64,000 nucleotides of DNA from Escherichia coli O157:H7 (GTDB taxonomy: Bacteria > Pseudomonadota > Gammaproteobacteria > Enterobacterales > Enterobacteriaceae). The DNA lies in assembly GCF_013167455.1 (NCBI RefSeq), contig NZ_CP038330.1, one strand, 5' to 3'. The position numbers and the translations under genes were made by a program. Numbering within the stretch: position 1 is the stretch's first letter; every line of letters starts with the position of its first letter. Shown here piece by piece: positions 323 to 50,366 of the stretch. The notes beneath the pieces were generated by a model. That model was not told the DNA's origin and did not search any database. It was given only the letters and a program-made list of their open reading frames with translations.

Positions 323-489
323 GTAGGTTGACCATATTCCTATCGTATTTCTCGTCGCTACATGCTCTCAAAACACCTTTAGATCGCACACACGCCTATC
401 TGTCCAATTTGGGCAGTTTGAGAAACCAGCTTTCCATCCCCCCCCTTTTAGAATGGGCTCATCGACAATTTTTTATGAGGAACGACACG

Positions 490-1107
490 ATGAGACAACT
501 GATAGCAATTCTGGGAGTGGCAATTCTGGCCGGGTGTGCCTCTAACGCCCCCGAGCAAAAGCCTCAGCCCCAGACTGCCCCTGCCGAAAATGACAAACCT
601 GCCCGAGTTAGCCGGGAACTGTCGATGGCATGGGACAACATGGGGCGCGGTGGTGCTGCATTACGTCAACCTGGTTATATCCATGTGCTGGGCGACGGTA
701 ATGTCAGCGCAACGATGAACAAGGTCAAAGATGACTCCGCTGGTTCAGATAAAACTCCAGCAGGGATCAAACAGCACGGGGATGTCAACGAAGCCATCAA
801 TACCTTCAAGTCCATGAATAAAGGCAAAGGCTACTCGCTGTACGAGTTGTCACGCTGGGAACGCTATTGCGATGGTGGCAAAGGTATGGACGAGCACGAT
901 TGGCGCTTTGTGGAAGCCGAGGGAACCACAAACATCCCCAAGGACGTTGTAACCGGCTGCATACCACCTACCCACACCTATAAAGATTATCTGAATGCCT
1001 GGACGCACTTTTGCACCAGTCAGGCTGTAACTGACGCAGATCGCCGCATTGTGCGCGAGTCCGTGCGTCCCTATTCAGTGGTGAACCCATGCAAAGCTCT
1101 GAAATAA
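490..1107 (+). CDS. putative lipoprotein
   Basis: Internal ATG at 490 preceded by GAGG; N-terminus MRQLIAILGVAILAGCAS has signal peptide plus lipobox (LAGC); the ORF track extends the frame upstream to 328. Confidence 0.6.
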   Translation: MRQLIAILGVAILAGCASNAPEQKPQPQTAPAENDKPARVSRELSMAWDNMGRGGAALRQPGYIHVLGDGNVSATMNKVKDDSAGSDKTPAGIKQHGDVNEAINTFKSMNKGKGYSLYELSRWERYCDGGKGMDEHDWRFVEAEGTTNIPKDVVTGCIPPTHTYKDYLNAWTHFCTSQAVTDADRRIVRESVRPYSVVNPCKALK

Positions 1108-1322
1108 GAAACCAGACAGAGCTAGGCCGTAAGGCTGAGCTCTTCGACGCTTTATTAATCATGCTCCAGGAGGCCGGTTCGAGGGGTAATTCCAGCGAAG
1201 CGGCCTATGTCATTTCTGGAGTCCTCGAAAACCTCTCCAGAGACTACCCCGAAGTCAAAGGTCTGGCTCAAAGCTGGACTGAGCTGGCGAATCTGGAATC
1301 AAAGATGAGAGGAGCTGCTTAA
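1089..1322 (+). CDS. small hypothetical protein (77 aa)
   Basis: ORF whose stop overlaps the topB ATG (TAATGG); no recognisable motif; weak RBS. Confidence 0.3.
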   Translation: MQSSEIRNQTELGRKAELFDALLIMLQEAGSRGNSSEAAYVISGVLENLSRDYPEVKGLAQSWTELANLESKMRGAA

Positions 1323-3514
1323 TGGACCTTTATATCTGCGAGAAGCCTTCTCAGGCAAAAGATTTGGCTGGCGTAATGAAGGCCTCCCAACGAGGTGATG
1401 GATTTCTCCATGATGGAGGAAACCGCGTTATTACGTGGGCGTTCGGCCACCTGCTGGAATTGTATATGCCAGACGATTATGACGAACGCTACAAGTCATG
1501 GTCACTGGAGACCCTCCCTATTGCACCAGAGTCATGGCGGTACAACGTTCGCAAGAGTGCGTTCAAACAGTACAAAATTGTTGAGGGACTGGTCAAAAAG
1601 GCGAGCACCATCTACATCTCAACGGACTACGACCGAGAAGGTGAGGCTATCGCCCGTTCGCTTCTGGATCGATTCCGCTACTCTGGCCCTATTCGCCGAG
1701 TTTGTTTGACGGCTCTCGATGAGTCAAGCATCAAGAAAGCGCTGAACAACGTAAAGGATGGCAAGGATACGGTCTCACTCTACTACGCCGCATTGGCACG
1801 GCAACGCGCTGACTGGTTGGTAGGCATGAACGTGAGCCGCCTCTACACAGTGCTGGCCCGAGATGTCGGCTTCAACCACACTCTTCACGTTGGCAGGGTT
1901 ATCACCCCAACCGTCGCTCTTGTTTGTCAACGGGACCGAGAGATCGCCGGTTTCACCCCCTCACCATACTGGACTCTGGGTGTGAACGTGTCCGTACAGA
2001 ATGGACAGTTTGCCGCCCAATGGATACCACCAGAAGAGTGCAGTGACGAGCAAGGCCGGTGCGTCAATAAGGCCTATGCCGAGCAGGTAGCCTCCCAGGT
2101 CAATGGTGCCAATGCTGTTATCAGCAAAGCAGAAACCAAACCAGGTAAAGAGTCAGCCCCCCTCCCCTTCGATCTAACGTCGCTGCAACAATACGCGAGC
2201 AAACGATGGGGATACACAGCTCAGCAGGTACTGGATGCAGCTCAAGCTCTGTACGAGACGCACAAAGCGACCACCTACCCTCGTACTGACAGTCGTTATC
2301 TACCCGAGAGCCAAAAGGAAGACATTCCGGACATTCTCCAGGCGCTCATTTTGTCCGATCAGAACGTCTCTGGGCTGGTGGCTGGCGCAGATCCTCATCG
2401 CAAGGCCAGGGTATTCAATGACGCCAAAGTGACCGCGCACCACGCGATCATTCCAACACCGGCCAGAACAGACATCAGTGCCATGTCTGAGATCGAGTTC
2501 AATCTTTACGACGCCATCCGTCGTTTCTACATCGCGCAGTTCTACAGCGAGTTCGAGTTCACCAAAACCTCCATCGAGGTGCAGTGTGGGCGTCACCTCT
2601 TTGCGTCCGCTGGTAAGACACCTACCAAACAAGGCTGGAAGGTTTTGTTTGCTTCTGATAGTGAAAGCAGTCCCAAGGACGAGGGGGAAGACACCGACGC
2701 GCCGGTTGAACAAGAGAAGCTCCCCAGGGTTAGCCAGGGCGAACCTGCCTTGCTGAATGGGGCCGAGCTGGCAAACAAAATGACGCGGCCAGCACCGCAC
2801 TTCACCGAAGCCACATTGCTTGCCGCGATGGAGAACATTGCCCGGTTCGTGACTGAGGAGAAGTTCAAACAAATCCTCAAAGACACAGCCGGTTTAGGCA
2901 CTCCAGCAACACGCGCAAGCATCATCCAGGGCGCTGTTGATAAAGGCTACTTCAAGCGTCAGAAAAAGGTACTGCTTGCAACTGATAAGGCTCATGCGCT
3001 TATAGCAGTGCTTCCACCAGCCATCAAATCACCCGGCATGACTGCGGCTTGGGAGCAGGAGCTTGAGAAAGTTGCCTCCGGCTCCGGGAACATGTCTGTC
3101 TTCATGAAGCAGATTTCCACCTGGATCTGCCAAATGGTTGAGCAGCTCAAAGTGGCCGCACCGGTTCTGACCAAAGAAGGTGGCGCGATGGCTAAAGCCT
3201 TCGAGGGCGCGAAGCCTCCTTCACACGAATGCTTCAACTGCGGTGGAGAGATGCACCGGATCAAAGGGAAGAACGGTTTTTTCTGGGGCTGCCAGAACGA
3301 GGCTTGCAAGAAGACGTTCCCAGACAACCGAGGGAAACCCGAGAAACGTATCGCGGCGGAGGATTGTCCAGACTGCCCAGATTGCGGTAGCCCGATGCGT
3401 CTCAGGAAAGGAAAAGCCCCTGGCAAGAAACGAGCCTCTAAGTTCTGGGGCTGCACAGCGTATCCCGATTGCAAAGGCACTATGCCCTTCAAAAAGTCGG
3501 ACTTTATGGATTGA
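1322..3514 (+). CDS. topB: DNA topoisomerase III (type IA) with C-terminal zinc ribbons
   Basis: 730 aa; Toprim-like N-terminus (MDLYICEKPSQAKDLAG...), type IA topoisomerase core, C-terminal CxxC...CxxC repeats (CFNCGGEM..., CPDCPDCGSPM..., GCTAYPDCKG). Confidence 0.9.
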   Translation: MDLYICEKPSQAKDLAGVMKASQRGDGFLHDGGNRVITWAFGHLLELYMPDDYDERYKSWSLETLPIAPESWRYNVRKSAFKQYKIVEGLVKKASTIYISTDYDREGEAIARSLLDRFRYSGPIRRVCLTALDESSIKKALNNVKDGKDTVSLYYAALARQRADWLVGMNVSRLYTVLARDVGFNHTLHVGRVITPTVALVCQRDREIAGFTPSPYWTLGVNVSVQNGQFAAQWIPPEECSDEQGRCVNKAYAEQVASQVNGANAVISKAETKPGKESAPLPFDLTSLQQYASKRWGYTAQQVLDAAQALYETHKATTYPRTDSRYLPESQKEDIPDILQALILSDQNVSGLVAGADPHRKARVFNDAKVTAHHAIIPTPARTDISAMSEIEFNLYDAIRRFYIAQFYSEFEFTKTSIEVQCGRHLFASAGKTPTKQGWKVLFASDSESSPKDEGEDTDAPVEQEKLPRVSQGEPALLNGAELANKMTRPAPHFTEATLLAAMENIARFVTEEKFKQILKDTAGLGTPATRASIIQGAVDKGYFKRQKKVLLATDKAHALIAVLPPAIKSPGMTAAWEQELEKVASGSGNMSVFMKQISTWICQMVEQLKVAAPVLTKEGGAMAKAFEGAKPPSHECFNCGGEMHRIKGKNGFFWGCQNEACKKTFPDNRGKPEKRIAAEDCPDCPDCGSPMRLRKGKAPGKKRASKFWGCTAYPDCKGTMPFKKSDFMD

Positions 3515-3528
3515 TAGAGGAATTAAGT

Positions 3529-50298: not shown

Positions 50299-50309
50299 TT
50301 TGGTCAATT

Positions 50310-50325
50310 CTTTCACATGTGAAAG
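50310..50325. promoter_or_regulatory. palindrome CTTTCACATGTGAAAG (copy 4) with adjacent TTGACA
   Basis: Perfect copy 12 bp after the helicase stop, abutting a -35-like TTGACA. Confidence 0.55.
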
Positions 50326-50343
50326 TTGACAAATAAAACGCTC

Positions 50344-50366
50344 TAAGCGCCCTAAATGGGCGCTTA
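50344..50366. promoter_or_regulatory. candidate activator box TAAGCGCCCTAAATGGGCGCTTA upstream of traF
   Basis: Perfect 9-bp inverted repeat with 5-bp AT spacer, ~67-89 bp upstream of traF; no T-run after it. Confidence 0.4.

Follow-up and report, generated by a model that had tools for sequence, protein, structure and literature searches.

Recurring promoter boxes on a rearranged IncC plasmid from Escherichia coli O157:H7 are very probably operators of the FlhDC-like activator AcaCD

The 64,000-nucleotide stretch of contig NZ_CP038330.1 considered here (the window; Escherichia coli O157:H7, RefSeq assembly GCF_013167455.1) is the backbone of an IncC (IncA/C2) multidrug-resistance plasmid. 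Its first 12,000 nucleotides match 1096 plasmid records, in 904 cases over 80% or more of the query; the records are mainly conjugative plasmids of Klebsiella, Salmonella and Escherichia, and replicon typing gave IncC in those matching records whose typing was read. The IncC plasmid pVCR94deltaX (NC_023291.1, 120,572 bp), with which the window is syntenic at 97-100% identity, served as the reference for direct comparison. A preliminary description of the window had pointed to a recurring inverted-repeat box upstream of four operons, those of a relaxase-like gene, a methyltransferase gene cluster, rhs and traF, and to an FlhD/FlhC-like gene pair at 59756-60912, and had proposed that the boxes are sites of this activator pair. 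Here, we compare the boxes and their promoters with the published regulon of AcaCD, the activator of pVCR94deltaX.

Reading the sequences directly located all four boxes: CTGTCCAATTTGGGCAG at 400-416, between traI and vcrx059; GCGCCCATTTTGGGCAG at 10103-10119, upstream of the vcrx036 operon; ACCCTAAAAGGGCA at 36340-36353, upstream of rhs; and GCGCCCTAAATGGGCGC at 50347-50363, upstream of traF. The rhs site is present but had been reported to start at 36339, one base too early, and the range of 50344-50366 reported for traF contains the 17-mer within a longer near-palindrome, TAAGCGCCCTAAATGGGCGCTTA. The exact pattern CCWWWWWGGGC has six strand matches in the window, all of them at the four intergenic loci, against an expectation of 0.86 ± 0.90 from dinucleotide shuffles (none of 100 shuffles reached six). 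Equal abundance inside coding regions or at random positions had been named as the outcome that would speak against the sites; the exact pattern is absent from coding regions and commoner than in the shuffles. With one mismatch allowed, the core occurs at chance level (43 matches against 43.8 expected); the short core is thus weak alone, and the discriminating signal is the full 29-bp motif. The consensus of this site of approximately 29 bp is about CTATGTGCCCAAAATGGGCAGTTACACAG, with an imperfect inverted repeat, GCCC-A/T5-GGGC, as its core and an asymmetric 3′ extension (TTACAG-like) that gives the site its orientation. The boxes lie 74 nt from the start codon of vcrx059 (ATG 490), 78 nt from that of traI (start 322, minus strand), 99 nt from that of vcrx036 (10004, minus strand) and 68 nt from that of rhs (ATG 36421), and the traF box is 46 nt from the start in the annotation (50409), or 72 nt if the likelier ATG at 50435 is taken, so that the originally claimed spacing of 60-105 nt is roughly borne out.

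The AcaCD regulon of pVCR94deltaX has been mapped by chromatin immunoprecipitation with exonuclease treatment (ChIP-exo), genome-wide 5′ rapid amplification of cDNA ends (5′-RACE) and RNA sequencing (RNA-seq) (Carraro et al. 2014, PLoS Genet 10:e1004714, PMC4207636, Table S3, Dataset S1). Table S3 of that study gives the coordinates of the AcaCD motifs in ChIP-exo peaks together with transcription start sites (TSSs) and expression values, and its motif coordinates were used to extract the site sequences from NC_023291.1. The minus-strand coordinates proved to be offset by one base from the plus-strand register; taken as printed, they yield a degraded weight matrix in which minus-strand sites perform poorly in leave-one-out tests, and after a one-base shift of the minus-strand sites all published sites score 11.6-32.4 bits. 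The comparison with published AcaCD sites that the preliminary description had called for found the four boxes to be identical to them or one base off: the divergent traI/vcrx059 pair (TATCTGTCCAATTTGGGCAGTTTGAGAAA and its partner), the vcrx035/vcrx036 pair and the traF box are identical to their counterparts in pVCR94deltaX, and the rhs box differs by a single substitution, located in the 3′ extension.

The motif scan suggested at the same time was performed across the window with a position weight matrix (PWM) of the 19 oriented published sites, and it identified six loci at 24.8-32.7 bits, with nine hits of at least 15 bits against 0.09 in simulated sequence of the same size and composition. 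To avoid circularity, an independent PWM was derived from 11 published sites, none of which is orthologous to a site in the window. With this matrix the nine highest-scoring strand hits (15.6-26.3 bits) all fall at the same six loci, and no other position exceeds 11.3 bits. All four of the originally noted loci were therefore found, but two more had been overlooked, at 48064-48092 on the plus strand and 62776-62804 on the minus strand. Weak hits at 15145-15173 (minus strand, 10-11 bits), 38888, 46080 and 53415 were dismissed as within the range of simulated sequence, in which the maximum is 10.2 ± 3.0 bits; the first of them falls at the boundary between the backbone and the resistance island.

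The two sites between traI and vcrx059 are overlapping, back-to-back 29-bp AcaCD boxes that span 392-424, a segment identical to pVCR94deltaX 35010-35043, and score 30.3 and 28.7 bits (24.6 and 20.5 bits with the independent PWM). Published 5′-RACE starts of pVCR94 were moved onto the window by exact 21-mer mapping and are given here and below in window coordinates. The plus-strand box (396-424, TSS 461) belongs to vcrx059-vcrx056, which includes a lipoprotein-like gene and topoisomerase III, and the minus-strand box (392-420, TSS 356) belongs to the relaxase gene traI. The assignment of this locus to a relaxase-like gene is right for traI, which is served on the minus strand, but the plus-strand gene is vcrx059, which encodes a 205-residue lipoprotein-like product and is followed by topoisomerase III. 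Only the first ~322 nt of traI are inside the window, which the gene leaves via the left end. The published expression values for pVCR94, given here and below from the acaCD deletion to the complemented strain (PMC4207636), are 9 to 964 for traI, 0 to 297 for vcrx059 and 0 to 854 for topoisomerase III (vcrx057).

A second overlapping pair, at 10095-10127, is identical to pVCR94deltaX 20377-20410 and scores 27.9 and 26.9 bits. Its minus-strand member (10095-10123, TSS 10059) serves the vcrx036 operon, which runs on the minus strand from 10004 to about 4108 and contains a thymidylate-kinase-like gene, the dcm cytosine methyltransferase gene and others; its plus-strand member (10099-10127) faces vcrx035. 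Expression in pVCR94 changes from 0 to 320 for vcrx036 and from 1 to 520 for vcrx037, and that of vcrx035 is 0 in both strains (PMC4207636).

The rhs (vcrx128) promoter has its box on the plus strand at 36334-36362 (pVCR94deltaX 94587-94615, one substitution), scoring 24.8 bits with the 19-site PWM, and its TSS at 36398, 23 nt before ATG 36421; expression of vcrx128 rises from 0 to 349 and that of vcrx129 from 0 to 104 (PMC4207636). The prediction that rhs and the methyltransferase operon are induced along with transfer genes thus has a published measurement behind it in pVCR94. The starts given for rhs in RefSeq and in the original pVCR94 annotation lie 108-165 nt further in and appear doubtful, and ATG 36421 yields a signal-peptide-like N-terminus, MRSRPSLLLMRNLRSLAVVVLATLPCVAFAQ. 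The segment 40092-41122, which comprises the 3′ end of rhs and a small open reading frame (ORF) at 40646-41086, is not matched by megablast anywhere in pVCR94deltaX. The two plasmids therefore have different C-terminal toxin domains and presumed immunity genes, as would be expected of the rhs variants found among IncC lineages.

The box of vcrx140-vcrx141 (48064-48092, plus strand, TSS 48127) is identical to pVCR94deltaX 106765-106793 and precedes a 92-residue ORF (vcrx140, 48500-48778) and a UvrD-like helicase gene (vcrx141, 48766-50298). It sits within a 346-residue kfrA-like ORF at 47460-48500 (vcrx139), giving a leader of 373 nt to the 92-residue ORF, and this location contradicts the published statement that all peaks are intergenic (PMC4207636). 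Expression of vcrx140 rises from 14 to 522, with vcrx139 constitutive (PMC4207636). As this box keeps its place within the ORF in pRA1 and pAsa4, location in an ORF is no evidence against function, and counting coding-region occurrences against the motif, as had been suggested, is too strict.

The box of the traF-traH-traG operon lies on the plus strand at 50339-50371 (29-mer 50343-50371, TSS 50408), is identical to pVCR94deltaX 109039-109072 and scores 31.8 bits (26.2 bits with the independent PWM); owing to its near-palindromic form it scores on the minus strand as well, at 50339-50367. Expression of traF rises from 68 to 2187 (PMC4207636). The start annotated for traF (50409) falls on the mapped TSS (50407-50409) and looks doubtful, and the ATG at 50435 yields a typical signal peptide, MKKSPLNLLLLAALTLGASHQAWAQ. 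Finally, the vcrx152-vcrx151 operon has a minus-strand box at 62776-62804 (TSS 62739), orthologous to pVCR94deltaX 120163-120191, with scores of 32.7 bits and, for the independent PWM, 26.3 bits. It precedes the ParM/StbA-like gene vcrx152 (62686-61703), expression of which rises from 149 to 1480 (PMC4207636), and a small ORF at 61686-61393.

At all seven promoters, 35-37 nt separate the 3′ end of the 29-mer from the transferred pVCR94 TSS downstream of it, which places the center of the inverted repeat near −51/−52. The promoters carry −10-like hexamers (TAGAAT, AGATAT, TACCAT, TATTCT and others) and nothing that resembles TTGACA at −35, and a consensus scan of the four originally noted promoter regions found no canonical sigma-70 promoter at the mapped starts. 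The box thus adjoins or overlaps the −35 region, with the pVCR94-derived TSS approximately 36 nt further on, a class II-like position, and class II activation is the architecture stated for AcaCD promoters (PMC4207636, PMC4542580). None of the four originally noted boxes gave a terminator-like call in the regions scanned or has a T-run; the only terminator-like hairpin near traF is a separate sequence at 50289-50305.

The FlhD/FlhC-like pair had been correctly recognized, and comprises AcaD and AcaC. The genes acaD (59756-60364) and acaC (60361-60912), both on the plus strand, encode the FlhD-like and FlhC-like activator subunits, each 100% identical to its pVCR94 counterpart. Both match their NCBIfam models weakly, AcaD that of FlhD with E = 2.7e-6 (27.4 bits, equivalog cut-off 90) and AcaC that of FlhC with E = 5.4e-7 (29.5 bits, equivalog cut-off 216), and they are distant members of the FlhD and FlhC families only, not equivalogs; RefSeq names AcaC 'FlhC family transcriptional regulator'. 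Two repressor genes are located nearby. The first, acr1 (58940-59212, plus strand), encodes a helix-turn-helix protein identical to pVCR94 Acr1 and is the first gene of the acr1-vcrx147-acaDC operon that Acr1 represses (PMC4207636). The second, acr2 (60972-61391, minus strand), encodes an H-NS-like protein (H-NS family protein in RefSeq) identical to pVCR94 Acr2, which represses acaDC expression (PMC4207636).

The boxes are also retained in more diverged plasmids. When the traI-vcrx059 spacers of IncC, IncA pRA1, pAsa4 and pAQU2 are compared, the mean column identity is 63% and the longest invariant block of the four, CTGTCCAWTTTGGGCAGTTTGAG, is exactly the box. In pAsa4 (NC_009349.1), the backbone of which is about 70% identical and which carries acaCD homologues, a whole-plasmid PWM scan detected boxes upstream of the orthologues of vcrx012, stbA, traF, vcrx140, vcrx114, vcrx098, traL, traV, vcrx076 and traI/vcrx059. 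All of these are kept in pRA1, which has the vcrx035/036 site in addition; the vcrx140 box is found at 128681 in pRA1 and at 59647 in pAsa4. Neither rhs nor its box was found in pRA1, which suggests that the regulon is older and that the rhs promoter joined it in the IncC lineage. In pAsa4, the type VI secretion system PAAR-VgrG cluster was scanned as a possible rhs analogue for an upstream AcaCD box, with no hit of at least 11 bits; this cargo cluster (72078-77860) contains PAAR, VgrG, DUF4123, DUF2235 and DUF2931 genes, and pAsa4 as a whole has no annotated rhs. In pRA1, approximately eight tandem copies of a unit of roughly 70-75 bp lie at 1200-1900, downstream of a vcrx127-like gene.

Together, these results very probably identify the boxes as operators for AcaCD, the FlhD/FlhC-like pair that is encoded at 59756-60912 and acts as master activator in conjugative plasmids of the IncA/IncC group. 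The boxes carry the 29-bp motif in a class II-like position, are orthologous to sites within AcaCD ChIP-exo peaks that have 5′-RACE starts and AcaCD-dependent induction (PMC4207636), and share the window with cognate AcaC and AcaD. The present analysis contributes the sequence match of boxes and activator to those of pVCR94deltaX, the statistically non-random occurrence of the boxes, their fixed spacing and their conservation in diverged relatives, and binding, TSSs and induction come from experiments on the near-identical pVCR94deltaX; we infer that AcaCD would bind these boxes and induce these promoters on this very plasmid as well. Once bound, AcaCD would act as a class II-type activator and bring in sigma-70 RNA polymerase, its presumed contact with the polymerase replacing the missing −35 contact, and near-symmetric boxes could fire divergent promoters, as at traI/vcrx059. 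AcaCD would be held down by Acr1 and Acr2, and expression of acaDC would then switch the regulon on. In the window, the units switched on would be traI, vcrx059-topB, the vcrx036-dcm operon, rhs with the downstream small gene, vcrx140 with the UvrD-like helicase gene, traF-traH-traG and the stbA/parM operon.

Several points weigh against this assignment. The evidence for binding, TSSs and expression all derives from the orthologous sites of pVCR94deltaX and not from this plasmid, which is rearranged relative to pVCR94 by a large inversion and in which an insertion sequence (IS) in traH truncates the output of the traF promoter. The rhs box has one changed base in the 3′ extension and the weaker score of 17.6 bits with the independent PWM. 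The box facing vcrx035 is silent in the published data, so a good box is no guarantee of a working promoter. Finally, the contact between AcaCD and RNA polymerase comes from inference and not from biochemistry (PMC4542580).

The IS in traH bears on the alternative that survives best, that these are genuine AcaCD-type operators but are, on this plasmid, mainly used by a heterologous activator or silent: Acr1/Acr2 could, for example, hold the regulon in the off state, or a resident SGI1-type island could drive it through its SgaCD, uncoupled from the plasmid's own transfer. The traH gene is split by a 1311-bp IS3-family element (52440-53750) that has two ORFs of its own, of 108 and 296 residues. 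The ends of the element are inverted (TGAACCGCCCCGG...CCGGGGCGGTTCA), with a 3-bp target duplication, GTT, and resemble those of IS629/IS1203. This exact insertion was not found in any PLSDB record. With traH split, the operon behind the traF promoter is no longer whole, and this interruption probably leaves the plasmid unable to transfer itself. Both repressors are intact, and SgaDC of SGI1 activates all AcaCD-responsive promoters according to the literature. Yet acaD and acaC are intact as well and identical to the functional pVCR94 genes, and the pVCR94 regulon is partly active in laboratory conditions despite Acr1/Acr2 (PMC4207636). We regard predominantly heterologous or absent use as improbable, and it would alter when the boxes are used, not their identity.

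It is far less likely still that the palindromes are bound by a ParB/KorB-like global repressor, or by the H-NS-like Acr2, instead of AcaCD. This idea draws on a second palindrome, TTTCACATGTGAAA, which recurs in the window six times (five exact copies and one with a single mismatch, against 0.3 expected) and adjoins two of the boxes, and on the KorB domain of IncC ParB. Copies lie at 10180-10193, 57 bp upstream of the vcrx036 AcaCD box, and at 50311-50324, 19 bp upstream of the traF box; the others are at 13595-13608, 44203-44216 and 58352-58365, with the mismatched copy at 43758-43771, and one copy overlaps the parA promoter region. This sequence is, however, a different one from that of the boxes: it is the core of the 22-bp IncA/IncC parS, which ParB binds in electrophoretic mobility shift assays, and its position next to the AcaCD promoters of vcrx036 and traF has already been described (PMC10954446). 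The CC-W5-GGGC boxes are the sequences whose pVCR94deltaX orthologues lie under AcaCD ChIP-exo peaks, and TTTCACATGTGAAA is a separate regulatory element and not part of the AcaCD box. The two are alike in being recurring intergenic palindromes of one backbone, and parS differs in its own sequence, its binding protein, ParB, and its function in partition and possibly repression. Lastly, chance palindromes or structural elements with no protein partner (intrinsic terminators or hairpins of the repetitive extragenic palindromic type) have next to no probability and are effectively refuted by the published ChIP-exo data and the statistics here: each box could fold into a short GC-rich hairpin whose loop is A/T, and the stop codon of the helicase gene upstream of traF precedes the traF box, but six matches stand against 0.86 expected with no shuffle reaching six, the four originally noted boxes lack T-runs and terminator-like calls, their spacing to the mapped TSSs is fixed, and they are kept across plasmids about 70% identical.

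Comparison with known systems places the AcaCD operators of the window closest to those of pVCR94deltaX. Five of the six loci are identical and rhs is one base off; the sites are orthologous, the downstream genes and TSS spacing are alike, and the activator proteins are 100% identical, so that the difference is confined to plasmid context (the inversion, the lack here of an IS/cadmium insertion and the interruption of traH here). The AcaCD-type boxes of SGI1 and MGIVmi1 share the motif, for example GGACTGCCCAAATTGGACAGTTTGGGAG upstream of SGI1 trhH/trhG, which is recognized by both AcaCD and the SGI1 activator SgaCD (literature); those sites are mimics on mobilizable islands that hijack the plasmid activator, whereas the window sites are the plasmid's own. 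SetCD, of the SXT/R391 integrative and conjugative elements, is a distant homologue (C subunits 34% and D subunits 23% identical) with a similar regulon (traI, traL, traV, dsbC, traF and others) and similar promoters, which are class II-like, with a box that abuts a poorly conserved −35 and divergent back-to-back boxes. The DNA motifs nonetheless differ drastically and the activators are not exchangeable (literature). Flagellar FlhD4C2 has the FlhC and FlhD folds in common with AcaCD, both being hetero-oligomeric class II-type activators of sigma-70 promoters, but its regulon is that of flagella and that of AcaCD is conjugation. The term 'FlhDC-type' given to the boxes hence holds for protein family and promoter architecture but not for the DNA motif, which its discoverers describe as unrelated to both the flagellar FlhDC box and the SetCD box (PMC4207636).

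The motif, the activator, the membership of rhs and dcm in the regulon and the promoter architecture were already published in 2014-2015 for a near-identical plasmid; four short palindromes, together with a gene pair of FlhDC type, had been enough for a real regulon to be correctly inferred by sequence alone. The assignment to AcaCD points to a question about those members of the regulon that lie outside transfer: what part Rhs, dcm, topoisomerase III and the UvrD-like helicase play in conjugation. That AcaCD-induced Rhs acts in contact-dependent competition or recipient policing during mating, with the dcm operon protecting or establishing incoming DNA, is a speculative suggestion that we consider unlikely; a literature search for a functional study of IncC Rhs found none. 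In the same speculative vein, a plasmid with intact acaCD and boxes and a broken traH would express these accessory functions without transferring itself, and could still serve as an 'AcaCD beacon' for SGI1-type islands. The system matters medically because the spread of multidrug-resistance plasmids of the IncC type, and of SGI1-type islands, is under AcaCD control.

The arrangement of the window relative to pVCR94deltaX is as follows. Window 1-15184 corresponds to the reverse complement of pVCR94 35434-15319 (97-99.5% identity) and has a dcm operon free of the IS/cadmium insertion that cuts it short in pVCR94; window 34710-63184 corresponds to pVCR94 92963-120572 in forward orientation (97-99.97% identity), and 63185-64000 to pVCR94 1-816. 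The traI-vcrx059-topB-dcm-parBA segment (1-15184) is therefore inverted relative to the rhs-traF-acaCD-stbA-mobI segment (34710-64000), and the two are connected via one fused resistance region of 19.5 kb (15185-34709) that has no counterpart in pVCR94deltaX. An inversion between the ARI-B and ARI-A islands would fit this order. Most of the resistance-island junction is shared by pTHNK130-1 (NZ_CP045742.1) alone, which is not identical; pRM13514 (NZ_CP006029.1, 64,561 bp), a reduced derivative of IncC, is a distinct plasmid in which the IS elements are placed elsewhere. By comparison with pTHNK130-1, the resistance region contains sul2, aph(3'')-Ib, aph(6)-Id, tetR/tet(A) and floR, together with ISVsa3 (IS91-like), a resolvase-like recombinase gene, an IS26 array, an EAL-domain ORF, a mer operon (merEDBAPTR) and IS4321. 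The IS26 array (25575-27928) consists of one complete IS26 (820 bp) followed by two head-to-tail 767-bp copies that lack 53 bp at the transposase-stop end, with three mismatches among the copies. Its junction also occurs in 219 plasmid records, including pSN254 (NC_009140.1) and pAR060302 (NC_012692.1), and because of this recurrence we regard the array as a real inherited structure and not an assembly artefact.

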